Positions 1,388 through 53,123 are shown, counted from the first letter of the stretch. The stretch: 57,704 bases of DNA from Candidatus Iainarchaeum sp. (GCA_043815085.1 JBDRJG010000022.1:1-57704); one strand, 5' to 3'. A program made the numbers and translations. Notes: generated from the letters alone by a model not told the origin.

Positions 1388-1421
1388 ATAATCTTAAAAA
1401 CTTCAGTATTTCTTTAAAATT

Positions 1422-2222: not shown

Positions 2223-2223
2223 A

Positions 2224-2748: not shown

Positions 2749-2750
2749 TT

Positions 2751-3449: not shown

Positions 3450-3476
3450 TATAAAAGTAAAGTAAGAAGTAAATAT

Positions 3477-3484
3477 TTATAAAT
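3477..3484 (+). promoter_or_regulatory. TATA box TTTATAAA
   Basis: Ends 20 nt upstream of ATG 3505. Confidence 0.45.
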
Positions 3485-3504
3485 TTGTTTTTAGTAAAAG
3501 TAAT

Positions 3505-4005: not shown

Positions 4006-4012
4006 TCAATTT

Positions 4013-5560: not shown

Positions 5561-5583
5561 AGAATGTTCTAAATCCCACTACT

Positions 5584-5591
5584 TTTATAAA
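5584..5591 (+). promoter_or_regulatory. TATA box TTTATAAA
   Basis: Ends 21 nt upstream of ATG 5613, which supports 5613 rather than 5544 as the start. Confidence 0.45.
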
Positions 5592-5612
5592 TTCTTGTTG
5601 TTTGGTTTAGTC

Positions 5613-8600
5613 ATGAAAAGGGGTTTTGGGATTTTTGTTTTTTTAGGTTTAATATTAATTTTATCTTTAACATTTGTTTCTGCTGGATTATTTAGTGATA
5701 TTTGGAATAAGATAACAGGAAAAGCAACTGATGTTGTTTTAAAAGAAAATGGGGCAATTTGCTCTTCAGATTCTGAATGTAAAAGTGGAGCTTGTGATTA
5801 TGATATTTTTACTGATAATTATGTTGAAGGCAGAATTAATACTGGCTCTTCTGCTAAGTATTGTCATTCAAATGTTTCTAAATGTCTTTTTTATGCTGGA
5901 ACCCTGGAAGAAAACGATGTTGGTTGCACTCGTTGTGCTGGTTGGGTTAATAATGGGACATGGGTTAGTTTTCTAGATACTTGTGCTGCCGGCTCTGAAT
6001 GGGGAAATTATGTTGATTGTACTGGAAGCACTCCTTATTGTGATTCTTCAAATGCAGATGATTTTTGCAGTTTTAATTGTGTTGAGTGTGGGGGTGATGG
6101 CCATTGTTCAGATTCAACTAAACCATATTGCGTTTATAATGAATGTTCAGCAGGAACATGTGTTCCTTCTTGTGTGGATAAACAATGCGGTGATGATGGT
6201 TGTGGAGGAAGTTGCGGAACTTGTTCAAGTGGATATACTTGTGATTTATCTGGAAAATGTAACCTCCTTGGTGCAAATGATTGTGTTTTTGAAAATCCAA
6301 AAGATTTAGCTGGAAATTTAATTTTAATTTCAAAATATTATTACGGAACTAATTATCTTCAGTATGCCGGGAAGTATTGTCAGGTTGCTAAGCATTGCGC
6401 TGGATTTGATTCTTCAAGTGTTGTTGTAAAGGACGATGCTGTTAAGGCATGTAGATGTGATAGTTGGTGGGGGTGCAAAGGAGGAACCTGCGTTGAGAAT
6501 GTTGCTTTAGATTCCCAATGGGAAAGAGTTGGCTCTGTAATATGTAAGGATTGTCCCGAGGGTGCTTGTGGAAGTGAATGTATTCCTAATTGTGTTGGAA
6601 AAGAATGTGGGGAGGATGGTTGTGAAGGGATTTGTGGAACCTGTTCTGCACCAAAGTCAAAATGTAACTCTGCCCATATTTGTGTAGCATGTTTGGCTAA
6701 CTCTGATTGTGGTAGTGGAAAAGCATGTGTAAATAATGCTTGTGTTGAAAATGAATCAGAAAACGGAGTTCTTGTTAATTCTATTTCAGAAAATGCAGAG
6801 GTTATTTTCTCTTTAGTTAATGGGGAAGAAAAATCACCTCCATTGAAACCAGGGGAATTTTACTTTTTTTCAAAAGAAGGAATTCTTGTTGACTATTCTC
6901 TTTTTAATTATTCCACTAATAAAGTGGATTTTAATGTTTTTAACCCATCTTTTGAACCCTTTGATAGAGGAGAATCTTTAAATAATCTTTTTGTCAAGGG
7001 ATTTTTTGGGTATGTTCCTTCTTTTTTCGATAGCGAGAGTTCTTTTTCAAATCCAGATATTGTTCGTCTTTGTTCTGGTTTTTCCCCACTTAGTGATGTT
7101 GAGTGGGCAGATTTTCCTTCTTCACTAGATTCAGAAATTTTTTATGTTTTGAATTTGCCAAATTGGCCTGATAGAACCCTTTCTGGATATGAGTTATTTT
7201 ATGATTTTTTCTTACCAAAGAACTTATTTGAATCAATATATCCTCAAACTCCTTATGTTTATATTGTTTCTGATGAATCTCCTTGGAGAGAAATTCCTTA
7301 TGAAAATGTTGAGAAGATTTATAATTTTTATGATCAGTATGATCCTCAAGCTACTACTTGGATTAATTTTGCATGGGCAGATAAACAAGGAGATTTGGAA
7401 AGATATAAACAAAATATTAAATTATATGGGGACAGGGCAGATGTAGTTAGTTTTGATTATTATCCTTCTTTTAATGGAGCAGGAGGAAGTTTTGATCAAA
7501 CTTATAGTGTTCTTGATCATTATGGGATTGATGCTATAGGAGATTTTGTGGAGATTTTTAAGGATGTTTTTGGAGAGAATAAGGAGATGTGGTTTATTTC
7601 TCAAGCTTATGGTGAAAAATCAAGGGATTATGAAATTCTGAAGAGAGATTTAAAGTTTATGCCTTATCAAGCAATTGTTCATGGCGTTGATGGGATAATA
7701 TTTTTTGGTCTTCATGTTAGAGGTTGGTATTCTTTAACTGCATTCCCAGAGATAGTGCATCCTATTATGAATGAATTAGAGTATTTAGAGGAGTATTTGA
7801 CGAGTTCTCCAACCAAGCAAGTTTTGGCACCTTTAGATAAAAATTTTAATTTAATAGATGGTTTTGATGGAATAGAATATTCTGTTTTTAGAAATGATGA
7901 AAAATTTGCAATTATTGCGGTAAATAGAAAAGACCAGAATGTAGAAAAAGTTTTTAATTCTGATAATTTAGGGGTGGAAATGTCAAAGATGAAAAATCTT
8001 TTTAGGTTTTATTACTCTCCTTCTTCAAATGATTCTTCTTTAGGTGGAACTAAAGTAATAAAAAATCAAGATTTTAATTCTGAAAGACTTGTTATTGACT
8101 TTTCTCCTTATGAAGTTTATATCCTAGAGGGAGAAATGGAAGAGAGCAAAATACTTTCTATCCCTGTTGGAGAGAATAAAAAAAATATGTTGAACTATGA
8201 TGATAAAGAAGTATTTTTGATTTCAGATAAGAGTTGGGAGGATGTTTTACCTTTGGTTCCTTTAACTACTTGGACGGGAAATGAAAATTGTAATGAAGGA
8301 TATGGAACTGCTGAAAATGTTTGTGTTTATCCTACTTTGATTTATCATGAGGAGGAAAGTGGATTTGATGTAGATTCTATAATTTATTTTATGCAACAAT
8401 ATAATGCAGAGAGGGTTACAATTATTGGAGAAACTCCTCAAGAATTAGATAATTTATTAATAACTCAACCAGAACTTGGAGCAGGAGTTAGTCAAAATAA
8501 TATAAAAAGAATAAGCCCCTCAAATTATATTAATTATTGGAGTTCATATCAGGATGTTGTTTATGTTCAAGATGATTATGAATTGGCTTTGTTAGCTTCA

Positions 8601-9947
8601 ACTTATGCGTCATTGATTGATGCCCCTTTAATAATAAAAGGAACAAGTTTGGATGTAGATGAAAATTTTGCAGGAAGAAATGTTATTTGTGTTGGTTATG
8701 ATTGGGAAATTTTTGGATTTCCAGATAGAAGAGGTACTGAATCAAGAAGAACAACTAATGGAACCACAACAACCTATTCTGGTTTAAATAGGAATTGTAA
8801 TGAAAAATACACTCTAGAACAATTGCAACAAAAATATGTTGGTGAGACAAACACAGATAAAATCATTTTAGTTAATCCTGATGATTTGGATATTAATGTC
8901 GATAATGGTTATAATTTTGGTTCTATTTATCCTGAAAAATCAATGTCTTTTATTTCTGATATTTATGGGAGAACCTCTTTGGTTGCACCTATTTTGGCTA
9001 GTGCAAAGCATGAGATAATTTTTAGTACGAAACAGCCCGTACCTTTTAATCCCCGCGATAGGCCCTCTACACTTACTATGCCCACCGAGTCCGAAATTGA
9101 GATTAGTCATATCTTTAATCTCATAGTGTCACGCATAAGCGCTCTTGGAATGAATGCAAAATATTTAACCATCATTGCTGCTCCAAATGCAATTGAAGAT
9201 AAAGTGTTTGTAGATGTATCTGTATATTCTTCCGATATCTATCTCTCATTAGATCAATACCTTTATACAACAGATGACCATCTTTATGTTGGAAGAATAA
9301 TGGGGCTTACTCCTTCAGATGTTTCAGGATATATCTCAAGAGATTTATTTTATAATTCTCTTCCAAATACCAATTTTGTGCTACTTATGGCAAGTAGTCG
9401 TAATATAGATGTAAATAATGCAATTTATTGGGCCCATGAATTTATTGATAGTGATTATCTTGTTGAAATTAAAACTTCATTAGATGTTGCTTATGGCTTT
9501 GATCCAGAATTATGGAAAAAACACATTTATCATTTGATATCTTATCAAGATCACGGGGGATCATCTTGGTTGGGCATTTCTTCTTGGAGGATACCCCAAT
9601 TAAATAGTGCTTTTGTGGTGGGAGATGCATGCTCTACTGTGTCTACATACGATTCTCTCTCCTTTTGGGCACACGTTATTAGGAAAGGGGGAATTGGATA
9701 TGTAGGAGCAATTGGTGTGGGTTTTACTACTACGGTTCCAATGTATAGAGATACTATTAATGGGATATATTATGATGATTATTCGATTGGACAAGCTTTG
9801 GGAGAGTCCTATCAAGATAATGTCTTTAATAATTTTGATATTTTTAATATGGACCTTTTAGACAAATATAAATTTATGACTACCTTAATTGGAGACCCGA
9901 CGTTGAATATTAATCCCCCATATAAATTAGATAATTTATTAAAATAA
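5613..9947 (+). CDS. Giant secreted multidomain protein: Cys-rich N-terminal repeats, central TIM-barrel-like segment, C-terminal clan CD (C25 gingipain-like) peptidase-like domain
   Basis: Signal peptide MKRGFGIFVFLGLILILSLTFVSA. Two copies of C-[VI]-P-x-C-x-x-K-x-C-G-[DE]-D-G-C-x-G-x-C-G-T-C at 6159-6230 and 6579-6650. Candidate catalytic dyad QDHGG (His codon 9552-9554) and GDACST (Cys codon 9630-9632). Confidence 0.7.
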   Translation: MKRGFGIFVFLGLILILSLTFVSAGLFSDIWNKITGKATDVVLKENGAICSSDSECKSGACDYDIFTDNYVEGRINTGSSAKYCHSNVSKCLFYAGTLEENDVGCTRCAGWVNNGTWVSFLDTCAAGSEWGNYVDCTGSTPYCDSSNADDFCSFNCVECGGDGHCSDSTKPYCVYNECSAGTCVPSCVDKQCGDDGCGGSCGTCSSGYTCDLSGKCNLLGANDCVFENPKDLAGNLILISKYYYGTNYLQYAGKYCQVAKHCAGFDSSSVVVKDDAVKACRCDSWWGCKGGTCVENVALDSQWERVGSVICKDCPEGACGSECIPNCVGKECGEDGCEGICGTCSAPKSKCNSAHICVACLANSDCGSGKACVNNACVENESENGVLVNSISENAEVIFSLVNGEEKSPPLKPGEFYFFSKEGILVDYSLFNYSTNKVDFNVFNPSFEPFDRGESLNNLFVKGFFGYVPSFFDSESSFSNPDIVRLCSGFSPLSDVEWADFPSSLDSEIFYVLNLPNWPDRTLSGYELFYDFFLPKNLFESIYPQTPYVYIVSDESPWREIPYENVEKIYNFYDQYDPQATTWINFAWADKQGDLERYKQNIKLYGDRADVVSFDYYPSFNGAGGSFDQTYSVLDHYGIDAIGDFVEIFKDVFGENKEMWFISQAYGEKSRDYEILKRDLKFMPYQAIVHGVDGIIFFGLHVRGWYSLTAFPEIVHPIMNELEYLEEYLTSSPTKQVLAPLDKNFNLIDGFDGIEYSVFRNDEKFAIIAVNRKDQNVEKVFNSDNLGVEMSKMKNLFRFYYSPSSNDSSLGGTKVIKNQDFNSERLVIDFSPYEVYILEGEMEESKILSIPVGENKKNMLNYDDKEVFLISDKSWEDVLPLVPLTTWTGNENCNEGYGTAENVCVYPTLIYHEEESGFDVDSIIYFMQQYNAERVTIIGETPQELDNLLITQPELGAGVSQNNIKRISPSNYINYWSSYQDVVYVQDDYELALLASTYASLIDAPLIIKGTSLDVDENFAGRNVICVGYDWEIFGFPDRRGTESRRTTNGTTTTYSGLNRNCNEKYTLEQLQQKYVGETNTDKIILVNPDDLDINVDNGYNFGSIYPEKSMSFISDIYGRTSLVAPILASAKHEIIFSTKQPVPFNPRDRPSTLTMPTESEIEISHIFNLIVSRISALGMNAKYLTIIAAPNAIEDKVFVDVSVYSSDIYLSLDQYLYTTDDHLYVGRIMGLTPSDVSGYISRDLFYNSLPNTNFVLLMASSRNIDVNNAIYWAHEFIDSDYLVEIKTSLDVAYGFDPELWKKHIYHLISYQDHGGSSWLGISSWRIPQLNSAFVVGDACSTVSTYDSLSFWAHVIRKGGIGYVGAIGVGFTTTVPMYRDTINGIYYDDYSIGQALGESYQDNVFNNFDIFNMDLLDKYKFMTTLIGDPTLNINPPYKLDNLLK

Positions 9948-27760: not shown

Positions 27761-28771
27761 ATGGCCATAAAGAAAGAAGATAGTGAAGATGAAGAAAAGA
27801 AAACTAAAAAAAAGGAGGGTCAAGAGTTGAGTTTAACTGATTTGCCTGGAATTGGGCCTGCTGTTGCTGCTAAATTAGAAGGGGCAGGAATTTTTGATTT
27901 AATGTCTTTAGCTGTCTCAAGTCCTGCTGTAATATCTGATGCTTCTGGGGTAAGTCCTGCTGTTGCAAGGAAAGCTATACAAGCTGCACGTGAGATGCTT
28001 GACTTAGGGTTTCAGGATGGAGTTGAATATGCACTGAGAAGGTCTAATGTTTCATATATAACAACTGGAAGTAAAAATTTTGATGATCTTTTGGGTGGAA
28101 GAGGAATTGAAAGTAGGGCAATTACAGAAGCTTTTGGAGCTTATGGTTCTGGAAAAACTCAACTGGGGTTGGTTTTGGCTGTTAGAGTTCAGTTGCCAGT
28201 TGAGCAAGGAGGAGCTAATGGAAAAGCGGTTTTTATAGATACAGAAGGAACATTTAGGCCTACGAGAATAAAACAAATTTCAGATGCTCTTGGCGCAAAT
28301 GCTGAAAAGGTTCTTAAAAATATTTTTGTTGCAAGAGCTTTTAATTCAGACCATCAAATGCTTCTTTTGGAAAAAATTAATGAGATGGTGAAATCAGGAG
28401 AGCCAATTAAAATTTTAATTATTGATTCTTTGACTGCACATTTTAGAGCAGAATTTGCTGGAAGAGGACAATTAGCAGACAGACAGCAGAAATTAAATAG
28501 ATACATGCATGATTTAATGAAGCTTGCCGAAACTTATAATCTTGCAGTTTATGTAACAAATCAGGTTATGACAAATCCTGCACAGATGTTTGGAGATCCA
28601 ACAACTGCAATCGGGGGGAATATTGTGGGGCATGCATCAACTTACAGGTTATATCTAAGAAGAGGAAAACAAGGTTCGAGAGTTGCGAAATTAATTGATT
28701 CTCCAAATCTTCCAGACAATGAAACTGTTTATTATGTAACTACAGGGGGCCTTAGTGATAAAGAGGAGTGA
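27761..28771 (+). CDS. radA: DNA repair and recombination protein RadA
   Basis: N-terminal HhH (LTDLPGIGPAVAAKLEGAG), Walker A GAYGSGKTQ, Walker B ILIIDS. Full-length RadA layout. Confidence 0.95.
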   Translation: MAIKKEDSEDEEKKTKKKEGQELSLTDLPGIGPAVAAKLEGAGIFDLMSLAVSSPAVISDASGVSPAVARKAIQAAREMLDLGFQDGVEYALRRSNVSYITTGSKNFDDLLGGRGIESRAITEAFGAYGSGKTQLGLVLAVRVQLPVEQGGANGKAVFIDTEGTFRPTRIKQISDALGANAEKVLKNIFVARAFNSDHQMLLLEKINEMVKSGEPIKILIIDSLTAHFRAEFAGRGQLADRQQKLNRYMHDLMKLAETYNLAVYVTNQVMTNPAQMFGDPTTAIGGNIVGHASTYRLYLRRGKQGSRVAKLIDSPNLPDNETVYYVTTGGLSDKEE

Positions 28772-28786
28772 GATTTTATTAATTCT

Positions 28787-29239
28787 TTATTCCACCAATT
28801 CGTCTTCATCAAACCATATTGCAATTTCTTTTTCGCTGTTTTCAGGAGAATCTGAAACATGAATTACATTATCAAAATTATTTGTTTTAGAGTTTACTTT
28901 TCCATATCTTCCTCTCAATGTTGAGGGTTCTGCTTCATCTGGATTAGTTTTTCCCGTATATGCTCTCAATTTTTTTATAGCATCTTCTCCTTCGTAAGCA
29001 ATTGCAATTATTGAATTAATCTCATGTAATTCTCCAAGAATATATTTTAACAAATCAGGATAAAAAGGTTTTTCTTTGTGATCTGAATAGTGTTTTTCAG
29101 CAAGGTGCTTCTTAACACCTACTAGTTTTAATCCAATCATCTTAAGATTTAATTGTGAGAGGTCATGAATAATTATTCCTGCAAGCTGTTTTGCCATTGC
29201 ATCTGGCTTTATCAAAACTAAAACTTTTTCATTTGACAT
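28787..29239 (-). CDS. ndk: Nucleoside diphosphate kinase
   Basis: LVLIKPDAM at the N-terminus and active-site NVIHVSDS. Confidence 0.9.
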   Translation of the reverse strand: MSNEKVLVLIKPDAMAKQLAGIIIHDLSQLNLKMIGLKLVGVKKHLAEKHYSDHKEKPFYPDLLKYILGELHEINSIIAIAYEGEDAIKKLRAYTGKTNPDEAEPSTLRGRYGKVNSKTNNFDNVIHVSDSPENSEKEIAIWFDEDELVE

Positions 29240-29278
29240 ATTTTATATTTTTACAATATAGTTTAAAAAGATTTGTTT

Positions 29279-29343
29279 TAGTAAAACATATAAAGTATAT
29301 ATTAATAAAAAGTATAATAGTAAAACATATAAAGTATATATTA
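29279..29343. repeat. Two direct copies of a 26-mer (TAGTAAAACATATAAAGTATATATTA) at 29279-29304 and 29318-29343
   Basis: Read directly from the sequence. Each copy contains a TATA-like AAGTATATATTA. Confidence 0.9.
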
Positions 29344-29357
29344 GACTATATATAATA
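29313..29357 (+). repeat. 45-nt promoter/5' cassette, copy A (identical to 30911-30955)
   Basis: TATAATAGTAAAACATATAAAGTATATATTAGACTATATATAATA, aligned by hand with no mismatch. Ends 4 nt before ATG 29362. Confidence 0.9.
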
Positions 29358-29361
29358 GAAG

Positions 29362-30792
29362 ATGGGTGATAAAAGAAGGATATTCATATTAGAATTTTTA
29401 TTTTTAGGTTTACTTTTAGTATTGTTTAATTTACAAATTATATCTGCTAATTCAATAGCTACAGGTGTTTATTTTCAAGGAAATGTTACTGCTAATTATG
29501 ATGAGGGAGGAGTTCTTTTGGTTAATTGGACTGCAGCAGGAAGTGCTGCAGGAAATTATACTGTGTATTTGTGGATGAATAATAATTTTGTAAATGTGAC
29601 AGAGTATGTTAATAACAGTGCAACCGGTTATTCTTGGGGGGCGAATACCACAGAAGCAAACTATACTTTTACTGTCGAAGCAGTAACTGCAGCTAATGCA
29701 ACAGGAACCAATGCAACAAATGTATCTATGTATGTAGATAGAACAGTTCCATTAGTAAATTGGACAGGTTCAGGGTATAATAATGTAACTTATAAAAAGA
29801 GTACAGATTATCTTACACTTAATATTTCAGTCGGGGATGTTCTTTCTGGGGCGGCTAGTGGAAATTCTTATTGCGTCTTTAACATTAGTGGAACAAATGA
29901 AACTGTTGCTGTTTCAAATGGTTGGTGTAATACTACTTATTTGAATTTAACTGGACTTTCTGATGGAAACCATACAATTGATGTTTGGGCAAATGATACT
30001 GTTAATAATGTTGGAGTTAATCTTTCATTTTATGTTGTGTGGGTAGATACCACTGCACCTCCAGCACCCACATTTAGTTGCACACCCGCTTCTGTTTATG
30101 CTGCAGAAACAATTACATGTTCATGTTCTGGTACAGATGCAGGTTCAGGGGTTAATTCCACTTCTTACACTGTAAATCCTTCAACAGCTGTAACAGGAAC
30201 CTTTGATACGTCTTGCAATATCACAGATAATGCAGTTAATTCAGTAAGTTCATCAATTTCTTATGTTGTTGGAGGTATAAAGGGCAGTAGCAGTTCTTCT
30301 TCATCAACTTTTACTTGGAAAATTACTTATGCAGAAGATGATAAAGAATTAGAAGATAAAGAAGAGATTTCAAAACTTCTTGGAGCTAAAACAAGAGTGA
30401 GATTAAAGATTGATGGAAAAATTCATTATGTTGGGGTTAATAGTCTAACCACCACAACAGCCACACTAAATATTTCATCTACTCCTCAAAGTGCAACACT
30501 TTCTATTGGAGATATTAAGAAATTTGAGGTTACAGGGGATGATTTTTATGATTTGCAAGTAATATTGAATTCAATAGATTCAAATAAGGCTAATCTCACT
30601 ATCCAGTCAATTCATGAAGAAATAACAGCTGAAGCAGAAGCAGAAGAAGAAGAAGAAACTTCTGCACAAGGAGAAACTTCTGCAGAAGAAGAAAAAGAGA
30701 AAGAAAATAAAAATTTGCTGTGGTTGTATATAATTTTAGGTATTTTAGTAATTGCAGTTGTAGGATATTTCTTTTGGAAAAAGAAAAAATAA
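29362..30792 (+). CDS. Secreted, sequon-dense surface (S-layer-like/adhesin) protein with C-terminal TM anchor
   Basis: Signal peptide MGDKRRIFILEFLFLGLLLVLFNLQIISA. Very many N-x-S/T sequons and Ig-like repeats (DAGSGVNSTSY). The C-terminal module is shared with the 2086-aa protein. Confidence 0.6.
   Translation: MGDKRRIFILEFLFLGLLLVLFNLQIISANSIATGVYFQGNVTANYDEGGVLLVNWTAAGSAAGNYTVYLWMNNNFVNVTEYVNNSATGYSWGANTTEANYTFTVEAVTAANATGTNATNVSMYVDRTVPLVNWTGSGYNNVTYKKSTDYLTLNISVGDVLSGAASGNSYCVFNISGTNETVAVSNGWCNTTYLNLTGLSDGNHTIDVWANDTVNNVGVNLSFYVVWVDTTAPPAPTFSCTPASVYAAETITCSCSGTDAGSGVNSTSYTVNPSTAVTGTFDTSCNITDNAVNSVSSSISYVVGGIKGSSSSSSSTFTWKITYAEDDKELEDKEEISKLLGAKTRVRLKIDGKIHYVGVNSLTTTTATLNISSTPQSATLSIGDIKKFEVTGDDFYDLQVILNSIDSNKANLTIQSIHEEITAEAEAEEEEETSAQGETSAEEEKEKENKNLLWLYIILGILVIAVVGYFFWKKKK
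30686..30780 (+). repeat. 95-nt 3' cassette, copy A (identical to 37111-37205)
   Basis: Hand alignment shows no mismatch. Encodes ...EEKEKENKNLLWLYIILGILVIAVVGYFFWK. Confidence 0.9.
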
Positions 30793-30910
30793 AATCTTTT
30801 TTCAAACCTATTTTGATTTAATTATTAAGACTAAAACTTTTTCCATAATTACTTTTTTACAATAGAATTTAAAAAGATTTGTTTTTAAAAGGTTTTGTTT
30901 TATTAAAATA

Positions 30911-30955
30911 TATAATAGTAAAACATATAAAGTATATATTAGACTATATATAATA
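30911..30955 (+). repeat. 45-nt promoter/5' cassette, copy B
   Basis: Identical to 29313-29357. Ends 4 nt before ATG 30960. The upstream ~30 nt (30854-30886) also resembles 29246-29280. Confidence 0.9.
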
Positions 30956-30959
30956 AAAG

Positions 30960-33900
30960 ATGGGCGATAAAAGGGGAGTATTTCTATTAGGGTTTGTTCT
31001 AGTGTTTTTTGTCTTGTTTGTTGGGGATTTTGTTTCTGCTTATTGTTGGGATTATAATGATGACCAAATTACTTGTGATGCTCAATCAGATTGTAGGTAT
31101 CATTCTGAATCTTGGGGGGGTTGGTGTGAAGAATTAAATTGCTGGAGTTTGTCTTCTACAGAATGTACTAACACAACATTAACCACTGCTATAGATAAAA
31201 ATTGTCAGTGGAAAAATCCAAATGATTATGGATGGTGCAGTCAGAAAAGTTGCTGGAGTTTTAAGGGAACTAATTCAACTTATTGTGGGAATGTTTCTGA
31301 TCATGGATTAAATTGTGAATGGAGAGCTCAGTGTAATGGTTGGAATCCAGATACTAATTGTTGGGATTTAACAACCCAAAATACGTGTAATAATATTTCT
31401 GGATGTTATTGGGGAGAATGTGCTGATAAAGGATGTTGGAATTATTGGGATGAAACAACTATAGATTCAAATGGGTATGTTTGTGGCAATGCTACTGGTT
31501 CAAGAGGATTGTCTTGCTTATGGAATTCTGGTTCTAATTATTGTTATGAACCTTCTTGTTGGGATTATGGAGGGTCAAGTTCAAATGAATCTTATTGTGA
31601 AGATTTTGCTGCAAGAGGAATAAACTGCACATGGATAAATAATTATTATGTTAAAGATTCTTGTGAAGAGGCTTCTTGTTGGCATTATGATTATACTAAT
31701 GAAACTTGGTGTGAAAATTCTACAAGAAGTGGTTTAAATTGTTCTTGGAGTAATAGTAGTTCAATGTGTATGATGACTGGATGTTGGAATTATGCGAGCC
31801 AAGGTGCTTGTCAAGGAGATTCTGCTTGTGTTTGGGGAACTTCAACAGGTTCTGGATGGTGTGAAGAAATTCAATGTTGGAGTTATGATACTTGGAGTGG
31901 AGGGAATTATACTTTTTGTGTGAATTCAACTTTAAACAACGGTCTGACTTGTCAGTGGACAAATGATACTTATAGTGAGACAGAGTTTGCTGGGTGGTGT
32001 AAACCTGTTCTTACTGAATCTTGTGCAAATTTTACCTCGGAAAGAGATTGTATGGATTCTTATTGGTGTTGGTGGGAATATGTTAATTGGAATAATGTTT
32101 CTTTAGGTGGAATTTGTAAAGACCCTATGTGGACAGAGGAAGGACTGACTTCTGCTGATGATATATTTATTGAATGGAATCCTGGATGTTATATTTTTGA
32201 TATGAATGCAACAGAGTGTAATTATACTGTTGGATGTAATTATAGTAATAGCTTATGCAATGTTGTGGGTAATGAAGATAATTTAATCTTTAATATAACT
32301 GCAGATGATATTAATACAAATGGAATTAATTGTTCTTTGATTAATAATTCTCAATTGTGTACAAATATTCCTGCACTTTCAACTTGTTGTGAATGGAGTG
32401 GTGTAGATTGCACTTCTAAATTAGGAAAATCTTGTTGGGAAAACGCTGATAGAGAGCAACAGAGTTTAGGAGTAACTGCTTGTGGAGATGTTGGTGTTCA
32501 AACTTCAAATGCCAATGAAGGTGAAACTTTATGTCAACAAATTACAGGTTATCCATTATATATGCCTTGTAATTGGACGAATGCTACTAAAACATGTGAT
32601 TTCAAGGCAAGTGATGTGTTTGGAAATCGAACACAAAGTTTTGCATTAATTGATAATAAGAAGAATTGTGATGCTTCTGGTGGAAAATGGATTCAGGAAT
32701 TTTATTGTGAAGGAAATCGTTCTGTTCCTGCTGGAAGATGTGAACAAAAAGGAACTGATGAGAGAAACTGTAACAAAGCATGTTTTGCTTGTGAATATGA
32801 TTTTAATGGTGCTCCGCACAATTCAAGCAATGTAGCAAAGGAATATTGTTATGATTCTAATCTAGGTTATTGTGAATTTATTACAGATACTTCTGCTCCA
32901 AATGGTTTTGGGTTTTGTAAATCAAAAGAGGAATTTGTAAATGGAATTGCAGGAGATTGTAGATATGATTGTGGGGATTGCACTTATTATGGAAATCCTA
33001 ATGCTTCAACTTATTCAGATGCAAGGCCAGATTTAATTCCATCTATTCCTACAACTTTTGATATTTGTAATACTCCTAAATGCTATTGTGGTTATGCAAA
33101 AGAATTTAATAATGTTACTTGTAAATGGGTTGTTGATTCTGCTTCAACTGAAATTGGAGGTTATTGTGTAGCCAGTTCTGAGAAAACTTGCGAGGATTCA
33201 TGTGATAGATGTTATACACAAGATAATTGCCTTGATAATGGAAGAAGCTCTCTCAATGCATCTGGTTCTTGTGAATGGGCTAATGATGCCTGTACAAAAC
33301 GGTCAGGAGGAGATGGAGTTACAGAAATTTGTTGGGATGGTATTGATAATGATGGAGATAATTTAATTGATTGTGGTGATTCAGGATGTTTTGCTGATTC
33401 ATTTTGTGGTTTTGTTTCAGGAGATTGTTTTGGATGGACAACTCAGGCAACTTGTGAGGCTTCTCAGTTAGATAGTGGGCTTAATTGTTCTTGGATAACA
33501 GACCCTTGGGGGAGCTGGTGTGATTTTCCAGGAGCTGATTGTTGGAAGAGTGATGGAAATGCAACAGCATGTAATTTAAAGAACATAAGTTGTGATTGGT
33601 CTGGAGGAACTGGTTCTGGTTGGTGTGAGCAAGATTGGAGTGTTGGACAAGATTGTTATAATCTTTTAAGTGAAACAGCTTGTGATGTTGAAGGTTGCAC
33701 GTGGACAAATGATACTTGGTGCTCTGGAGAGGGTGCTGATAATGAATGGTGTTTGAATTCTGCAGGAGGTTGGTGTGACCCTGATGCTTTTGCTCCTAAG
33801 AATTGTTATCAATATACTGATAATATAACTGTTATTAGTAGTTATGTTTGTGGAAATAAGACAGGATGTTATTGGAGTGGTAGTTATTGTATGGAAGAAG

Positions 33901-36900
33901 GATGTTGGAATTTTGATGGTAATAGCACTCTTTGTAATCAACAATCTAATTGTGCTTGGGAGTATAGTGATTGGCAGGGGTGCCAAGTAGATTGGAGTGG
34001 AAATTGTTGGAATTTTGGTGCTAATGAATCTTATTGTCAGGATAATGGGTGTGCTTGGAGAAATGATAGTTATAATCCTGTTGGTTGGTGTGATAATAAT
34101 GTTAGTAAATGTTGGGATTATATTACTAATGCTACATGTGGTGTAGATAGTAATTGTATGTGGAATTCAGAGATGTGGAATTGGAGAACAGAGAGTTATG
34201 GTTCTTGTGATGCTGCTTGTTATAATAGTAATTTGACTTCATCTCAGTGTGGGGTTCTTACTGGTTGTAGATGGAATGATGGCTGGTGTATGAGTAATGC
34301 AACTTATGGGGGAGGTACAGGAGGAATTGATTGTTGGCAGTATGCAGATAATACAACTATTATTGGCACTTTTGTTTGTGGTAATGCTACTGGATGTAAA
34401 TGGAAAAATGATGGTTGGTGTGATCCAAAAGGTTTTTCAGGAGGAGGATGTGCAACAGGAATGGGGGGAGGAGCACAAACAGGCATGGAGTGTTGGAAAT
34501 ATGATGGAAATCAAACACGATGCACTAATTCTTCTGATATTAATATAAGTTGTATATGGATGCCAGAGTTAAGACCATTCTGCGAACCAGACTGGAGTTC
34601 TGATTGTTGGAAATATTATGATAATATAACTATAGATAGTGCAGGGTATGCTTGTGGAAATGTTAGTGGTTGTTATTGGCAAAATACAAGCGAGGTTCAG
34701 GGATATTGTGCAAATGTATTTGACCAGTGTTGGAATTCAACTTATTCAGATGGAGCAAATAATGATACAGCAGAATGTGATGCTAATCCAAATTGTAATT
34801 GGACAACTGGTTCTTGGGATACTTATTATCAAGGAACTGGTTGGTGTGAGCCAAGTTGTTTTTCTGCTACAACAGAAGCAGGTTGCACTGGAAGTTGCAG
34901 ATGGATGAGTGGTTGGTGTAATACTCCTGGAATGTATAATATGTTTGGAGGAATGGAGACTGGAGCTCCTGTTATGATTGCTGTGGATGCTATAGGAGAT
35001 AATACAACATCAGGAGAATATCTTGATTTAATGGGTATGGGGATGAGAGATATGGAGGGTAGTTTTGGATTTGCATCTGGAACTCGGAATTTTGCAGATG
35101 CAGGAATTTGTAATAATGAAAAAATAGGATTTAGTTTTGGAGGAACAAATAATTTTGGAAAAGGAAATGCAACTGTTAGATATTATGTTTATTTAGATAC
35201 AGATGGAAGCACAACAGGTGGATGCGCTTTAAGCGATGATTCATCTGTAGTAGGTTATGAGTTTTTCTTTAAATATATTTCAACTTATAATACTACTTTA
35301 GGAAAAGCAACAGAGACATTTAATGCACAGAAGTGTGGTTCAAGCGGATGGGTGACTGCAGATATAAGTTTAAATGCTTGGAAAGAAAAAATGTGCGGAG
35401 AAATACAAGGACCAATGATTGCTGTTGATAAAGCAGCTTTAGAAAAATTTCCAAGCTTATATAATGCAGAGAAAGATATGAGGGTTTATGTTTCTATTGC
35501 AGGAGCAGATAATAATGCGACTTCTCCTTCAGATATTGCAGGACCTGGATGGGTGACTCCTGGAGCAATTGATTTCTCAATAACAGGGTTCTTTGATTTG
35601 GGAGCCAGTGGTGCGACATTTGAAAAGATACTTATGGGAGGGGGGTTTGTTAAATATGAAGATTGTTATAATATTGTGGATGATGATGGGGATGGATTAG
35701 TTGATTGTGCTGATTGGGATTGTGAATTTACACCTCATTGTGAGAGTTCTGGAGTTAATGTTGTGGGATATGCTGATACTTCAATGCCAAGAATTACTGG
35801 AGTAAAGGTGGAGGAATATACTGATGCTGCTTTGATTTTTTATACTACAAACAAACCAACAAATGGAACATTAACTTTCTGGCATAATGATTCAACATGT
35901 AGTGTAAATAATACTATGAGTAGAACAATTGATGATTCAACTGTATTAACTAGTGTAAGAAACTTTACTTTATGGCATGATGCACATATATATAATGATA
36001 CGGGAGTTGATTCTCTTGATTATAATTTAAGTAACGATACTACTTATTATTACAAGTTAAAGGTGTGTGATTCAGGCAATAAATGTAGTGTAAGTGCTTG
36101 TTCTTCACTTAGAACAGCGAGTTCAATTAAATGTGGATATTGTAATTTTGTCACAATAATCTCTCCTCCTTTAGGATGGCAGGTTAGTTATGACTTGAAT
36201 ACTGATGGTCTTTATGAGCATAAACAGGGATTAATGTGCGGACCAAGTGCAGGGATGAAAACAAATTATTCTTCTGGAAGGAGAGCTAATATTAAACTGA
36301 ATAATTCTGATGGGGCTGAGATGTTGTTTTACAATGTAACTCTGACTAAGACTGGCTTAACTGGCGATACAAGGACTATAAATACAGCAGGAGATTTAAT
36401 CTATGATGGCGCTCAAACAAATAGTGCTGGAGAAACTGTTGAATTAGTTGGTATGATTGCAGAGACAAGAGACAAGATAATTAATAATTTACATCCAGAA
36501 GTTTGTAAGATTTTAATCCCTAATGATGATTGTGGTGAGTTGTGGCACTGTGATGATTCAGGAGCTAATTGTCAAAGAAGAGATAATGCAACAACAGATG
36601 CTCCAACAGGAGTAGTAAGTGGAACGTCTTGTTTGTGGACAATTCCTTATTGTGAATTTTCTACATGGGCTTCTGGCCAACCAGGAGATACTGTAACTAC
36701 AACTCCGCCAACTACTTCTGGAAGTGGGGGGAGTAGTGGAGGAGGTTCCTCTGGAGGAGGAGCAACTTATATTGTTTCAGAAAGCCAGTTAACAAATGGG
36801 CATAGTCAAGAATTAGCTCTAAATGCACGATTTAAAATGACTGTTCTTAATTCAACACATTATATGAAATTAATTGAATTAACTGAAAACACCGCTACAA

Positions 36901-37220
36901 TTAATCTTTCTTCTGAATCTCAAATAGCAACTTTAAATATAGGGGACATTAGAAGATTTGAACTTACAGGGGATGATTTTTATGATTTGAAAACAATTTT
37001 AAATTCAATAAATTCAACTTCAAATAAAGCAAATTTTACTTTGAAATCTATTTCAGAAGAAGTAACTCCTGAAACAGAAGCAGAAGAAACAGAAAAAGAG
37101 GGTTTAGCACAAGAAGAAAAAGAGAAAGAAAATAAAAATTTGCTGTGGTTGTATATAATTTTAGGTATTTTAGTAATTGCAGTTGTAGGATATTTCTTTT
37201 GGAAAGAGAAAAAAAGATAA
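30960..37220 (+). CDS. Giant (2086 aa) secreted Cys/Trp-rich repeat protein with C-terminal TM anchor
   Basis: Signal peptide MGDKRGVFLLGFVLVFFVLFVGDFVSA. Tandem ~35-45 aa units (CW..x..C..x..C.W..x..WC) span ~31041-34925. Two CxxxxDxDGDxLxDCxDxxC motifs lie at 33330-33410 and 35664-35741. The tail has a Ser/Gly linker, a shared beta domain, an acidic linker and a TM helix. Confidence 0.7.
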   Translation: MGDKRGVFLLGFVLVFFVLFVGDFVSAYCWDYNDDQITCDAQSDCRYHSESWGGWCEELNCWSLSSTECTNTTLTTAIDKNCQWKNPNDYGWCSQKSCWSFKGTNSTYCGNVSDHGLNCEWRAQCNGWNPDTNCWDLTTQNTCNNISGCYWGECADKGCWNYWDETTIDSNGYVCGNATGSRGLSCLWNSGSNYCYEPSCWDYGGSSSNESYCEDFAARGINCTWINNYYVKDSCEEASCWHYDYTNETWCENSTRSGLNCSWSNSSSMCMMTGCWNYASQGACQGDSACVWGTSTGSGWCEEIQCWSYDTWSGGNYTFCVNSTLNNGLTCQWTNDTYSETEFAGWCKPVLTESCANFTSERDCMDSYWCWWEYVNWNNVSLGGICKDPMWTEEGLTSADDIFIEWNPGCYIFDMNATECNYTVGCNYSNSLCNVVGNEDNLIFNITADDINTNGINCSLINNSQLCTNIPALSTCCEWSGVDCTSKLGKSCWENADREQQSLGVTACGDVGVQTSNANEGETLCQQITGYPLYMPCNWTNATKTCDFKASDVFGNRTQSFALIDNKKNCDASGGKWIQEFYCEGNRSVPAGRCEQKGTDERNCNKACFACEYDFNGAPHNSSNVAKEYCYDSNLGYCEFITDTSAPNGFGFCKSKEEFVNGIAGDCRYDCGDCTYYGNPNASTYSDARPDLIPSIPTTFDICNTPKCYCGYAKEFNNVTCKWVVDSASTEIGGYCVASSEKTCEDSCDRCYTQDNCLDNGRSSLNASGSCEWANDACTKRSGGDGVTEICWDGIDNDGDNLIDCGDSGCFADSFCGFVSGDCFGWTTQATCEASQLDSGLNCSWITDPWGSWCDFPGADCWKSDGNATACNLKNISCDWSGGTGSGWCEQDWSVGQDCYNLLSETACDVEGCTWTNDTWCSGEGADNEWCLNSAGGWCDPDAFAPKNCYQYTDNITVISSYVCGNKTGCYWSGSYCMEEGCWNFDGNSTLCNQQSNCAWEYSDWQGCQVDWSGNCWNFGANESYCQDNGCAWRNDSYNPVGWCDNNVSKCWDYITNATCGVDSNCMWNSEMWNWRTESYGSCDAACYNSNLTSSQCGVLTGCRWNDGWCMSNATYGGGTGGIDCWQYADNTTIIGTFVCGNATGCKWKNDGWCDPKGFSGGGCATGMGGGAQTGMECWKYDGNQTRCTNSSDINISCIWMPELRPFCEPDWSSDCWKYYDNITIDSAGYACGNVSGCYWQNTSEVQGYCANVFDQCWNSTYSDGANNDTAECDANPNCNWTTGSWDTYYQGTGWCEPSCFSATTEAGCTGSCRWMSGWCNTPGMYNMFGGMETGAPVMIAVDAIGDNTTSGEYLDLMGMGMRDMEGSFGFASGTRNFADAGICNNEKIGFSFGGTNNFGKGNATVRYYVYLDTDGSTTGGCALSDDSSVVGYEFFFKYISTYNTTLGKATETFNAQKCGSSGWVTADISLNAWKEKMCGEIQGPMIAVDKAALEKFPSLYNAEKDMRVYVSIAGADNNATSPSDIAGPGWVTPGAIDFSITGFFDLGASGATFEKILMGGGFVKYEDCYNIVDDDGDGLVDCADWDCEFTPHCESSGVNVVGYADTSMPRITGVKVEEYTDAALIFYTTNKPTNGTLTFWHNDSTCSVNNTMSRTIDDSTVLTSVRNFTLWHDAHIYNDTGVDSLDYNLSNDTTYYYKLKVCDSGNKCSVSACSSLRTASSIKCGYCNFVTIISPPLGWQVSYDLNTDGLYEHKQGLMCGPSAGMKTNYSSGRRANIKLNNSDGAEMLFYNVTLTKTGLTGDTRTINTAGDLIYDGAQTNSAGETVELVGMIAETRDKIINNLHPEVCKILIPNDDCGELWHCDDSGANCQRRDNATTDAPTGVVSGTSCLWTIPYCEFSTWASGQPGDTVTTTPPTTSGSGGSSGGGSSGGGATYIVSESQLTNGHSQELALNARFKMTVLNSTHYMKLIELTENTATINLSSESQIATLNIGDIRRFELTGDDFYDLKTILNSINSTSNKANFTLKSISEEVTPETEAEETEKEGLAQEEKEKENKNLLWLYIILGILVIAVVGYFFWKEKKR
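37111..37205 (+). repeat. 95-nt 3' cassette, copy B
   Basis: Identical to 30686-30780. Confidence 0.9.
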
Positions 37221-37251
37221 ACTATTTAATCTGTTTTATTTCTAAATTATA

Positions 37252-38472
37252 ATGATGGAAAGAAATTGGGTATTTGCTGATTTGCATATTCATTCGCGAT
37301 TTTCAAGAGCGTGCAGCAAGGATATTACAATAGAAAATCTTGAAAAATGGGCAAGAGTTAAGGGAATTGGTTTGCTTGGAACAGGAGATTTTACTCATCC
37401 TCTCTGGCTTAAAGAAGTAAAAGAAAAATTAATTGAGAAAGAAGGGATTTTATATTCAAAAAGTGGATTTAAGTTTTTATTGACAGGAGAGATTAGTTTA
37501 ATGTACACCCAGGGAAGAGGAAGGAGAGTGCATTTAGTTTTACTTGTTCCTGATTTTAAGACTGTAGATAAAATAAATGAATATTTTGATGGAAAAGGAA
37601 GAAGAGATTATGATGGGAGGCCCATATTTAAGATATCTTGTGAGCAATTTGTGAAGGACATGAAGGAAATTTCAGAAGATATTGAAATAATTCCTGCTCA
37701 TGTTTGGACTCCTTGGTTTGGAATCTTTGGGAGCATGACTGGTTTTGATAGTTTAAATGAAGCTTTTGGCGAACAAGAAAAGAATATTCATGCAATTGAA
37801 ACAGGGATGTCAAGCGACCCTGAGATGAATTGGCATTTATCTGAATTAAATAATAGGGCAATAGTTTCTTTTTCAGATTCCCATAGTTTTTGGCCTTGGA
37901 GAATTGGAAGAGAAGCAACTATTTTTGAAAAAGTAGACAACTATCAGGATATTATTGGCGCTATAAGAGAAAATAAAATTCTTGGAACAATTGAAACAGA
38001 GCCATCATATGGAAAATATCATTGGGACGGACATGCCAATTGTAATTTTTCAAGTTCCCCCGAAGAAAGTAAAAAATTAAGTGGAATTTGTCCTGTTTGT
38101 AATAAACCTCTTACTATAGGTGTTGCAAACAGAGTTTCTGAAATTGAAGATCAGGCAATAGAGAAAAATTCAAACAGAAAAAAATATTATGTTCTATTAC
38201 CTTTGCATGAATTAATAGCATTCAGTAAGGCTTCAACACTTTCTAGCAAAAAGACCTGGGAACTTTACAATAAGATTATTGGGAGATTTGGAAATGAATT
38301 TAATGTTTTATTGAATGTTTCAAAAGAAGATTTAATAGAGGAATTAAAAGATGATTTAAAATTAGTTCAATTAATTTTAGATAATCGTGAGGGAAAAATA
38401 AAAGTCAAGCCAGGATATGATGGTAAATATGGAGAACTTGTAGAAGGAGAGAAGCAGGTTAAATTGTTTTAA
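37252..38472 (+). CDS. endQ: Endonuclease Q (PHP-domain nuclease with zinc ribbon, COG1379-type)
   Basis: The N-terminus FADLHIHSRFSRACS...GLLGTGDFTHP closely matches EndoQ as I recall it. Zinc ribbon is CNF...CPVCNKP. Confidence 0.7.
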   Translation: MMERNWVFADLHIHSRFSRACSKDITIENLEKWARVKGIGLLGTGDFTHPLWLKEVKEKLIEKEGILYSKSGFKFLLTGEISLMYTQGRGRRVHLVLLVPDFKTVDKINEYFDGKGRRDYDGRPIFKISCEQFVKDMKEISEDIEIIPAHVWTPWFGIFGSMTGFDSLNEAFGEQEKNIHAIETGMSSDPEMNWHLSELNNRAIVSFSDSHSFWPWRIGREATIFEKVDNYQDIIGAIRENKILGTIETEPSYGKYHWDGHANCNFSSSPEESKKLSGICPVCNKPLTIGVANRVSEIEDQAIEKNSNRKKYYVLLPLHELIAFSKASTLSSKKTWELYNKIIGRFGNEFNVLLNVSKEDLIEELKDDLKLVQLILDNREGKIKVKPGYDGKYGELVEGEKQVKLF

Positions 38473-51427: not shown

Positions 51428-51446
51428 TAATCTAAATTTTTATAAA
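51428..51446 (+). promoter_or_regulatory. 19-nt promoter element TAATCTAAATTTTTATAAA, copy 1
   Basis: Identical to 51838-51856 and contains TTTATAAA. It is followed by the SD-like GGAGGTG (51475-51481) and ATG 51488. Confidence 0.45.
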
Positions 51447-51487
51447 TAGGAGAGAATAATATTATATATTGAAAGGAGGTGAAAAAA

Positions 51488-51837: not shown

Positions 51838-51856
51838 TAATCTAAATTTTTATAAA
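51838..51856 (+). promoter_or_regulatory. 19-nt promoter element TAATCTAAATTTTTATAAA, copy 2
   Basis: Its TATA box ends 22 nt upstream of ATG 51879. Confidence 0.45.
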
Positions 51857-51878
51857 GAATAAAGAACAAGATTATGGC

Positions 51879-53123
51879 ATGAAAGGAGTGTTTGTAATAC
51901 TTGACGGCTTGGGAGATTTGCCCAATAAACGTTTGAATGAGCAAACTCCGTTAGAAGCAGCACAGACTCCGAATATGGATTTTCTGGCTGCCCGAGGAGA
52001 GTTTGGATATATGTATCCTGTAAAACCAGGTTTTATACCTGAATCTGATGAAGCAATAGTATCGGTATTTGGAAATGATTTAATTTCAAGCACGAGAGGA
52101 CAACTCGAGGCAAGAGGCACAGATTTAAAGATGACTCGGGGGGATTTGGCATTAAGAGCCAACTTTGCAACAATAGATTCGTTAGAATGGGGGAATATCT
52201 TAGATAGAAGGGTGGGAAGAACTCTGACAACTGCAGAAGCTGTTCTTTTGGCAAAAGCATTGAATAAAATAAAAATGCCGTGTGAATTTGTATTTAAACC
52301 AACTATTCAGCATAGAGGAGTTTTAGTGTTTAGGGGAGGATTTTCAGACAATGTCCTTGGAAATGATTATACTTACATTCAGGGGAAGAATGCTGCAATT
52401 GATAAGGTTGTGAAATGCAAGGCTTTAGACGATGATGAAAATTCACTATATACTGTTAATTTAGTAAACGAATTCTTAGAAAGAGCATATGAGGTATTAA
52501 ATAACCATCCTGTTAATTTAGAGAGAGTTAAAAGAGGATTTATGCCTGCAAATTATCTGATGGTTAGAGGAGCAGGGATAGAGGTGCCAAAACTAAAACA
52601 ATACAAGAAATGGGTTTCTGCAAGCTATATGCCTCTTGAGATAGGAATTTCAAATGTCTCTGGAATGAAAAATTTTTCCTTCGAATATCCTTCTTTAGAA
52701 AACATAGATTCATATGAGAATTTATGGAAAGGGTTGAGGAGAGCATGTAAGCATTCTATAAATGTTATTAAAAAAAATATAAAGAAAGCAGATTATGTTT
52801 ATGTTCATTTGAAGGAAGTTGATGCAGCAGGACATGATAACAAACCCATTGAAAAAAAGTTAATGCTGGAATATATTGATATAACTCTGTTTAAATATAT
52901 AAGAAAAATTGCCCCCCCAAATAAAATAAAAGTTGTTGTTACAGGAGACCATTCAACTCCGTGTAAATTAAAGGCACATTCAGCAGACCCTGTTCCTGTT
53001 TTGTTTTATAATTGCGGGCAGATTCCTTCTGCAAAAAAGTTCTGTGAAAAAGAGTGCAGGAAAGGAGAATTAGGAAGCATGAATGGAAATGAACTTCTTC
53101 AGAAAGTTGGGTTTGTGAAATAG
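51879..53123 (+). CDS. apgM: Archaeal-type cofactor-independent phosphoglycerate mutase
   Basis: N-terminus MKGVFVILDGLGD, later VDAAGHD and TGDHSTP, which are typical of aPGM. Confidence 0.85.
   Translation: MKGVFVILDGLGDLPNKRLNEQTPLEAAQTPNMDFLAARGEFGYMYPVKPGFIPESDEAIVSVFGNDLISSTRGQLEARGTDLKMTRGDLALRANFATIDSLEWGNILDRRVGRTLTTAEAVLLAKALNKIKMPCEFVFKPTIQHRGVLVFRGGFSDNVLGNDYTYIQGKNAAIDKVVKCKALDDDENSLYTVNLVNEFLERAYEVLNNHPVNLERVKRGFMPANYLMVRGAGIEVPKLKQYKKWVSASYMPLEIGISNVSGMKNFSFEYPSLENIDSYENLWKGLRRACKHSINVIKKNIKKADYVYVHLKEVDAAGHDNKPIEKKLMLEYIDITLFKYIRKIAPPNKIKVVVTGDHSTPCKLKAHSADPVPVLFYNCGQIPSAKKFCEKECRKGELGSMNGNELLQKVGFVK

Follow-up and report, generated by a model that had tools for sequence, protein, structure and literature searches.

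Two neighbouring genes whose products are unrelated over most of their length begin with the same DNA, and we asked what such a repeat signifies. The genes lie in a stretch of 57,704 nt from Candidatus Iainarchaeum sp. (GCA_043815085.1 JBDRJG010000022.1:1-57704; hereafter the window, at its full length), where a predicted surface-protein gene of 476 codons (gene 1 or 'small', 29362-30792, + strand) is followed by one of 2086 codons (gene 2 or 'bigA', 30960-37220, + strand). An earlier note, made from the sequence alone, had pointed to a 45-nt block in front of both, and had proposed either strict co-regulation by a common factor or conserved ends acting as recombination handles for the exchange of ectodomain cassettes. 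According to our analysis, the repeated 5′ cassette probably arose by segmental duplication of the bidirectional promoter region of the locus itself, and gene conversion has probably homogenised the ends of the two genes. The host is an uncultivated groundwater DPANN archaeon, Pacearchaeota-like. The window is AT-rich (32% GC) and contains archaeal markers, namely RadA with an HhH domain, an RPA-like OB-fold protein with a DUF2240 match, and EF-1beta, the last called from its similarity to a gene annotated EF1_GNE in the related locus L038. Homologues of both surface genes come from metagenome-assembled genomes (MAGs) of Pacearchaeota, Nanoarchaeota and Woesearchaeota, and contigs of groundwater metagenomes are near-identical to the window sequence. 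Below, L-numbers denote related loci, more than 25 of which were compared for the content of the surface-gene slot, and P-numbers denote related proteins; X1-X4 are the source groundwater metagenome runs, for which the population data are Logan unitigs at k=31 only.

The repeated 5′ blocks and their promoter elements

All the 5′ repeats described in the earlier note were found again. The maximal exact match is 45 nt long (29313-29357 = 30911-30955), with two copies in the window and 0 matches in 100 dinucleotide shuffles. The start regions that follow differ at 2 nt (G/A at -4 and GGT/GGC in codon 2), and both open reading frames (ORFs) begin MGDKR. In front of gene 1, a 26-mer is repeated exactly with a period of 39 nt (29279-29304 = 29318-29343), and the window has three occurrences of its 24-mer core, where 0 are expected. 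The upstream block of about 30 nt extends over 33 nt with two mismatches (29248-29280 vs 30854-30886). None of these elements, the 45-mer, the doubled 26-mer or the 33-nt block, is attributable to chance. An exact search for the 24-mer core gave 0 matches among 185,579 species-representative genomes and likewise 0 among JGI metagenome contigs, which means that the organism's genome is not contained in these collections; an exact-protein look-up of the gene 1 product returned no record, and no RNA run was found to contain the repeated sequence. An Rfam scan of 28700-31200 gave nothing exceeding noise, and the counts from a sigma-70 and terminator scan equalled the shuffled expectation, these being bacterial models that are irrelevant to an archaeon.

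What, then, are these blocks? An archaeal core promoter has a TATA-like box about 24-30 nt upstream of the transcription start, with a purine-rich TFB-recognition element (BRE) before it. In most genes of the window a TTTATAAA-like box ends 21-26 nt before the ATG, which suggests leaderless or near-leaderless mRNAs. In the first copy of the shared block (29248-29280, - strand), a TATA-like CTTTTTAAA (29262-29270) ends 22 nt before the start codon of the divergent gene for nucleoside diphosphate kinase (NDK; 28787-29239, - strand; Pfam NDK, E 4e-39), and a BRE-like AAAACAAAT (29271-29279, - strand) precedes this box. Because the spacing matches the geometry of the other window genes, the block is probably the NDK promoter; it is conserved in L006, L007, L030 and L047. 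On the plus strand, each 45-mer contains AAAACATATAAA (29322-29333 in copy 1, 30920-30931 in copy 2), which ends 28 nt before the ATG and is followed by ...TATATAATA(G/A)AAG ATGG; downstream of the TATA box, copy 1 thus has the conserved start context ATAATA(G/A)AAG ATGG. The first unit of the doubled 26-mer (29279-29304, + strand) has its own AAAACATATAAA at 29283-29294, and in copy 1 the NDK BRE and the surface-gene BRE stand back-to-back.

Comparable elements stand at the orthologous position in relatives. In L001, L004, L010, L018 and L038, AAAACATTTATAAA precedes the start codon of the first surface gene by 28-31 nt; L006 and L030 have AAAACATATAAAC, in the same range of distances, as the equivalent of the 45-mer promoter element, and in more than 12 related loci AAAACAT(T)TATAAA stands upstream of the first gene of the slot, at 28-34 nt from its ATG. 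Both features expected of a BRE/TATA core promoter, the box spacing with its BRE and the orthologous conservation, were therefore seen. Because the same BRE/TATA recurs at the orthologous position, we take the 45-mer to be the native core promoter of the surface gene (gene 1 for copy 1, gene 2 for copy 2), not a mobile element and not a genome-wide repeat. The likeness to archaeal leaderless BRE/TATA promoters lies in the A-rich BRE-like stretch and in the TATA-like box at a fixed distance from the ATG, whereas the tandem multiplication of the TATA unit sets the present case apart: it is twofold in the window and threefold in L047 (RadA 92% identical in aa), where three tandem 10-nt AAAACATATA units occupy 3975-4012 of the same promoter. 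Multiplication of the TATA unit therefore recurs in the lineage. Compact bidirectional promoters offer a second likeness, with two BRE/TATA units back-to-back between NDK and the surface gene; here, however, the whole unit has been copied elsewhere, and one arm of the copy faces a 12-codon relic only.

Since the repeat corresponds to a conserved native core promoter, the natural reading is that both surface genes would be expressed in parallel from equivalent promoters, and co-expression is the likely function of the duplicated promoter. The G+C content at third codon positions (GC3) is 0.164 and 0.177 in the two surface genes, the lowest of 20 genes sampled (0.17-0.27), which fits a common, possibly expression-linked codon bias. 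As for co-regulation by a common factor, nothing in these promoters indicates a special factor site beyond their basal elements. Taken as a whole, the earlier interpretation finds partial support.

Homologous 3′ ends and the relic of a kinase gene

The two genes also have related 3′ ends. The ectodomains had been described as unrelated, which holds for the bulk of the proteins and is incomplete, because the last ~140 aa are homologous and include 95 nt of exact identity. In nucleotides, the homology runs from the middle of the C-domain to about 70 nt past the stop codon (30457-30861 vs 36891-37286, 76-77% identity). The exact 95-nt tract (30686-30780 and 37111-37205, both + strand) covers the end of an acidic linker and the whole transmembrane (TM) anchor (EEKEKENKNLLWLYIILGILVIAVVGYFFWK). 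Ahead of it, the second half of the C-domain and the linker of gene 2 (36891-37110, + strand) are about 70-76% identical to 30457-30685; behind it, the 3′ flank of gene 1 (30793-30821, + strand), with an oligo-T run at 30797-30802 that is a probable archaeal terminator, has weak similarity to the 3′ flank of gene 2. At 70% background identity, an exact run of 95 nt has a P of ~1e-15. Where the two proteins have the same residue, they use the same codon in 33/34 instances within the tract, compared with 34/52 immediately before it.

At the 5′ side, identity decays inside the signal peptide after the exact 45 nt, or after 54 nt in X1, where position 29358 is A and the exact repeat is therefore longer. 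The truncated NDK gene and NDK promoter are about 85-90% identical between the copies, with indels (by eye from the alignment), and the spacers of the two copies are unalignable, each with its own tandem duplication. Because the sequence around the exact tracts, though homologous, is only 70-88% identical and contains indels, the tracts point to gene conversion. The identity of the anchors is 100% within the window, 64% within L001 and 70% between the big protein of L038 and the small one of L010, whereas the C-domains of bigA and bigB are 61-65% identical to each other and 47-55% identical to that of the small protein from their own genome; the anchor thus groups by genome and the C-domain by protein type, as read from identity matrices only. 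Run length, homogenised synonymous sites and incongruence between segments all agree, and indicate that the exact tracts would result from gene conversion between paralogous ends, atop purifying selection on the basal promoter. In exact tracts within diverged flanks, homogenised synonymous sites and incongruent groupings, the locus resembles known concerted evolution of paralogous surface-gene ends; it differs in that the organism is a DPANN archaeon, the ectodomains are unrelated, and the converted parts are the promoter with the leader and the membrane anchor, not antigenic regions.

Left of the shared block, copy 2 contains a truncated NDK gene. On the minus strand, 30808-30846 is a 12-codon ORF with the translation MEKVLVLIIKSK*, and 30822-30884 matches the NDK start and promoter of L007 with 87% identity (blastn, E 6e-16). 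The second copy of the shared block (30854-30886, - strand), with a TATA-like box at 30868-30876, would be the relic of an NDK promoter, and an imperfect tandem copy of the block stands at 30884-30902. The position of the NDK relic left of the copy 2 block indicates that copy 2 duplicates the whole divergent intergenic region between NDK and the surface gene. The earlier note overlooked both the common 3′ ends and the NDK relic, which together reveal the nature of the duplication. We also observed that the relic promoter (30808-30876, - strand) keeps a canonical geometry, its TATA-like box standing 21 nt before the ATG of the stub; it could fire a short transcript, or express the 12-codon ORF, antisense towards the 3′ end of gene 1.

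The following scenario may be proposed. The source region would be the one that normally lies between NDK, on the minus strand, and the single surface-protein gene of the slot. Copy 2 retains a relic of the first 8 NDK codons, the NDK TATA/BRE, the surface BRE/TATA, the start context and the first five codons of the surface gene. Such a duplicate would give gene 2, for a Cys-rich protein of ~2000 aa, its own promoter, equivalent to that of gene 1 with its 476-aa Ig-like glycoprotein. Both genes would then share a common frame, made up on the 5′ side of the promoter, a short or absent leader and the signal peptide start, and on the 3′ side of half of the beta-sandwich C-domain, the acidic linker, the TM anchor and a T-rich flank. 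Where identity is perfect (45-54 nt at the 5′ side, 95 nt at the 3′ side), gene conversion would have left its tracts, to which purifying selection on the basal promoter is added. It would be expected that the two envelope genes have strong promoters of equivalent kind, are transcribed in parallel and yield proteins inserted by way of one common type of anchor. As a side effect, the direct repeats would be substrates for homologous recombination, leading to deletion, addition or replacement of ectodomains, which is the pattern observed among related genomes.

Several points weigh against this duplication scenario. The first concerns the age and direction of the event. The stub has the ancestral MEK start and the live NDK an MS(N/T)EK insertion common to L047, so that the duplication may be old; the derived GATTTG in the NDK-promoter block is nevertheless present in both copies. 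These two characters conflict on one tree and would need further conversion or a deletion in the stub; the duplication may thus be old and repeatedly homogenised. Moreover, the core promoter is about 85-90% conserved even across species, and selection alone could account for part of the 5′ identity. As to gene 2, bigA was either acquired, or ancestral and then lost in L006 and L047, and both remain candidates. Finally, promoter activity, equal promoter strength and co-expression are only inferred.

Two other origins were considered, the first of which was rejected. An import of the copy 2 promoter together with bigA conflicts with the nearest bigA loci, which have adenylate kinase (ADK) and not NDK as divergent neighbour, and is also ruled out by the lineage-specific AAAACATATAAAG and GATTTG forms present in copy 2. 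A recent horizontal transfer of the big gene was suggested by its 82% aa identity to L038, compared with 53-81% for housekeeping proteins, but there is no composition signal: its GC3 of 0.177 is inside the range of the genome. The bigA of the more distant L040 is also above the conservation of housekeeping genes, and bigA evolves slowly in general.

The metagenome runs agree with two copies and two genes. Unitigs of X1 tile both junctions (30686-31080 and 29150-30715) and include the unique flanks of both copies. The common 3′ unitig has a depth of 19.8 vs ~10, that is double, and exactly two contexts were seen on each side of both repeats; among these unitig contexts there was no third copy, and a multi-copy cassette system in the source metagenome is therefore not supported. 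In X1 the depth is 8-10.5 over gene 1, 9.5-12 over gene 2 and ~10 in the flanks, which argues against a large subpopulation without either gene. Small polymorphisms in the promoter were the only alternative junctions seen, in unitigs of k=31 that are blind to recombination between repeats >31 nt; since exchange or deletion between the repeats yields no new 31-mers, these data are uninformative on such events. The 39-nt doubling is polymorphic: a contig of X3 runs from 29304 straight into GACTATAT, while in X1 the unitig that represents the doubling alone has a depth of 3.9 vs 8-10 in its flanks. The X1/X3 unitigs also depart from the window by 29235 G>A, a 1-nt deletion at 29241, 29259 T>G, 29261 G>A and 29358 G>A. 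At 29259, 29261 and 29358 the change removes a difference between copy 1 and copy 2, as would fit homogenisation that is still going on or an assembly that mixes strains. A joint from 30956 to 29359 in X4 ('goes back 1598') was considered as a circle or recombinant and rejected, as the 54-nt repeat exceeds k=31; the coverage of X4 is 2.7x and the other branches are missing at this joint.

Possible ectodomain exchange and the competing readings

We then considered whether the conserved ends serve as homology arms, by which whole ectodomains are swapped, gained or lost in homologous recombination with the DNA of related cells. In that case the slot would serve as a site for surface-protein cassettes, and the window would be a two-cassette intermediate. 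This is quite possible, though we would put it somewhat short of an even chance. Its ground is the comparison of more than 25 loci, in which the order RadA(+) - NDK/ADK(-) - surface gene(s)(+) - MJ0043-like(+) ... eIF2a(-) is kept; the order RadA(+)-NDK(-) is found again in relatives, and the MJ0043-like gene of the TIGR00375 family (37252-38472, + strand) is the conserved right-hand border. Between these flanks the content varies: small only (L004, L006, L007, L010, L012, L017, L018, L047 and others), bigA only (L038, L040, L044, L045), bigB followed after an 8-nt gap by small, in one operon (L001), bigA followed by small, both with AAAACATTTATAAATA (L043), small followed by bigA (the window), small followed by a partial second ORF that is weakly similar to bigA (L024), or two small genes in a row (L072, L075, L077). 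Constant flanks with varying content are the mark of a replacement island. The divergent neighbour itself varies at the same position and orientation, being NDK (28787-29239 in the window) in some lineages and adenylate kinase in others (L038:9204-9875, L010, L043-L045, L050, L051), and L069 carries both kinases.

The sharpest comparison is that of L010 and L038, which are collinear at 80-86% nt identity except where 1.2 kb with a small gene in one faces 6 kb with a big gene in the other. Core promoter, signal peptide and ectodomain all fall within the break (L010 3152-4366 / L038 9911-15956), and homology restarts in the C-domain at VSSTPQEATL, exactly where the similarity between the small and big genes of the window begins. 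The C-terminal module is also paired in varied ways, bigA ending in this C-domain, in a PGF-pre-PGF domain or in neither, and small proteins in this C-domain or PGF-pre-PGF. In L044 the module of C-domain, linker and anchor is a separate gene of 213 aa (6797-7438) with its own signal peptide, which starts 2 nt after the end of a bigA (1093-6795, ending CEF*). This is a gene fission or fusion exactly at the module boundary, and it has a SlaA/SlaB-like look of a canopy plus a stalk. The promoter or 5′ end is repeated before a second gene elsewhere too, in L024 (85 nt at 74%, core 25/26), L043 and L075/L077. Moreover, recombination between the direct repeats of the window would give exactly the single-gene states of the relatives.

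Several observations tell against such exchange. An ancestral two-gene locus followed by differential loss gives the same comparative pattern; the left breakpoints are fuzzy, the alignment of L010 and L038 ending 50-90 nt upstream of both start codons; and the source metagenome has two copies only, with no deletion or replacement junction seen in unitigs that are blind to repeats of this length. The idea of recombination handles thus stands on an evolutionary time scale, given the L010/L038 swap, the incongruent groupings and the shuffling of modules. It does not stand as ongoing switching, because each gene has a promoter of its own, the repeats are in direct orientation and the neighbourhood lacks a recombinase; there is no evidence for programmed switching. 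Exchange is compatible with duplication and gene conversion as a consequence of the repeats, not as their origin. Beyond this, we tentatively suggest, as a possibility to follow, that Pacearchaeota-like DPANN archaea have a fixed chromosomal 'expression frame', composed of a native strong promoter with leader and of a C-domain/anchor module whose ends are kept identical by gene conversion, in which unrelated ectodomains (the Ig-like small, the Cys-rich bigA, and bigB) are exchanged, stacked or split off by homologous recombination. If true, this frame would be a cassette mechanism that diversifies the cell surface, of relevance to host attachment or virus escape, and the window would be a two-cassette state able to resolve into either of the single-gene states of relatives. 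Duplication and gene conversion are ordinary mechanisms; what deserves further attention is the modular frame.

Replacement genomic islands around S-layer and glycosylation genes have been described in haloarchaea by comparison of Halobacterium salinarum strains, with virus evasion proposed as their driver (PMC7002104). As in those islands, position and flanks are conserved here and the envelope content differs. In contrast to them, however, the unit replaced is an ectodomain inside a gene frame, and the 3′ breakpoint falls within coding sequence, not between genes. The Sulfolobales SlaA/SlaB pair, a two-component S-layer (PMC5744192), also comes to mind: here too there are adjacent envelope genes, with a large outer protein and a beta-sandwich, TM-anchored module, and the likeness is closest in L044, where the anchor-module gene directly follows the big gene, and in the L001 operon with its 8-nt gap. 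No sequence homology to SlaA/SlaB was found, however, and the window proteins, which are predicted envelope proteins and not necessarily S-layer components, each have their own anchor and promoter.

The next alternative is a dedicated transcription factor that binds the 45-mer and acts as a joint switch for the two exoprotein genes. In its favour, the promoters match each other perfectly, the stretch from the TATA box to the ATG (…TATAT…TAATAAAAG ATGG) is conserved across species, and imperfect AT-rich palindromes span 29338-29363 and 30934-30961. Yet these palindromes are 71-75% complementary, which in AT-rich DNA is the chance level; orthologous promoters accept substitutions and indels, and no regulator gene is conserved in the slot. 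Above all, the 95 coding nt at the 3′ end are equally perfect, synonymous sites included, and a DNA-binding factor is unable to explain that identity. A dedicated regulator site is therefore unlikely.

Programmed phase or antigenic variation, with the repeats as switch sites, seems very improbable. In bacterial S-layer systems such as the Campylobacter fetus sap homologues, with their conserved 5′ regions, and Lactobacillus slpA/slpB, conserved ends are recombination substrates, and silent cassettes are moved by inversion to one promoter. The window recalls them by several surface genes with common conserved ends, here two alternative proteins side by side, and by the micro-heterogeneity of its promoter in the population (39-nt doubling present or absent, G or A at -4). 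It differs in that both genes have complete promoters and ORFs, so that neither is a silent cassette; recombination between the repeats, which are direct, deletes instead of inverting; and the neighbours (RadA, NDK, MJ0043-like, eIF2a) include no invertase or integrase. In X1, gene 1, gene 2 and flanks have similar depths, and the X4 joint is accounted for by the 54-nt exact repeat at low coverage. That the second promoter copy or the gene adjacency is a chimera assembled at the repeat is scarcely credible, for although a metagenomic contig such as this one can be mis-joined at repeats longer than k, the X1 unitigs tile both junctions with doubled depth in the common 3′ segment only, a copy-specific NDK relic and different spacers are not expected from a collapse or chimera, and analogous tandem loci occur in other assemblies.

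The surface proteins and other observations

Most DPANN archaea are episymbionts that have not been cultivated, and host attachment and virus susceptibility presumably depend on the proteins at their surface; to our knowledge, almost nothing is known about the expression or diversification of their surface genes. Among the papers searched, none describes this locus type in DPANN, and the haloarchaeal replacement islands and the SlaA/SlaB pair come closest to it in concept. The locus supplies a candidate promoter of a major envelope gene, with a BRE/TATA, a leaderless geometry and a bidirectional arrangement with NDK, and offers an apparently clear case of concerted evolution in a DPANN genome. 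Because the slot is syntenic (RadA - NDK/ADK - surface gene - MJ0043-like), ectodomain turnover could be traced across many metagenomes.

The product of gene 1 consists of a signal peptide, three Ig-like domains dense in N-x-S/T sequons, a beta-sandwich C-domain (aa 321-420), the acidic linker and the C-terminal TM anchor, and has about 100 homologues in Pacearchaeota/Nanoarchaeota MAGs. Its AlphaFold2 model (pLDDT 72) gave Foldseek matches to generic adhesin and FnIII arrays only. The product of gene 2 has a signal peptide, ~1900 aa of Cys/Trp-rich repeats, a Gly/Ser linker, the C-domain, the acidic linker and the same TM anchor as gene 1; it has 115 homologues across DPANN, the best at 79% identity, and its match to the NCBIfam acidic double-disulfide repeat is below the cut-off. 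A Pfam search with both proteins returned no family, and no S-layer family of Pfam or NCBIfam was matched, the fold of gene 1 being a generic Ig/FnIII array. Neither C-terminus of the window matches PGF-pre-PGF (TIGR04213) at E <= 10, the anchor reading NLLWLYIILG with no PGF, whereas the relatives P0050, P0054, P0117 and P0123 match it with E 6e-18 to 6e-35. At 30701-30780 and in relatives, a family-wide motif, (S/N)L(I/T/L)WLW(I/V)(I/L)(I/L)G or SLFKKWWFW, marks the start of the anchor and directly precedes the TM helix; it is reminiscent of a sorting signal but is not PGF-CTERM. Furthermore, bigA is conserved over its full length across Pacearchaeota, Woesearchaeota and Aenigmarchaeota (compared with P0102-P0216). 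In L040 it reaches 66% vs 36-57% for most housekeeping proteins, RadA alone being higher (70%). bigA is thus often above the housekeeping conservation of the same contigs, which is unusual for a surface protein.

Elsewhere in the window, 5544-9947 is a very large ORF of 1467 aa with a TTG start, which has no convincing Pfam family and carries neither the promoter repeat nor the anchor repeat. A second duplicated promoter-like block of 51 nt, 80% identical between its copies (TAATCTAAATTTTTATAAA...GAAAGGAG, 51428-51478 / 51838-51888), stands before two adjacent genes, one a 103-aa ORF of unassigned function and the other a cofactor-independent phosphoglycerate mutase (Pfam E 4e-35).

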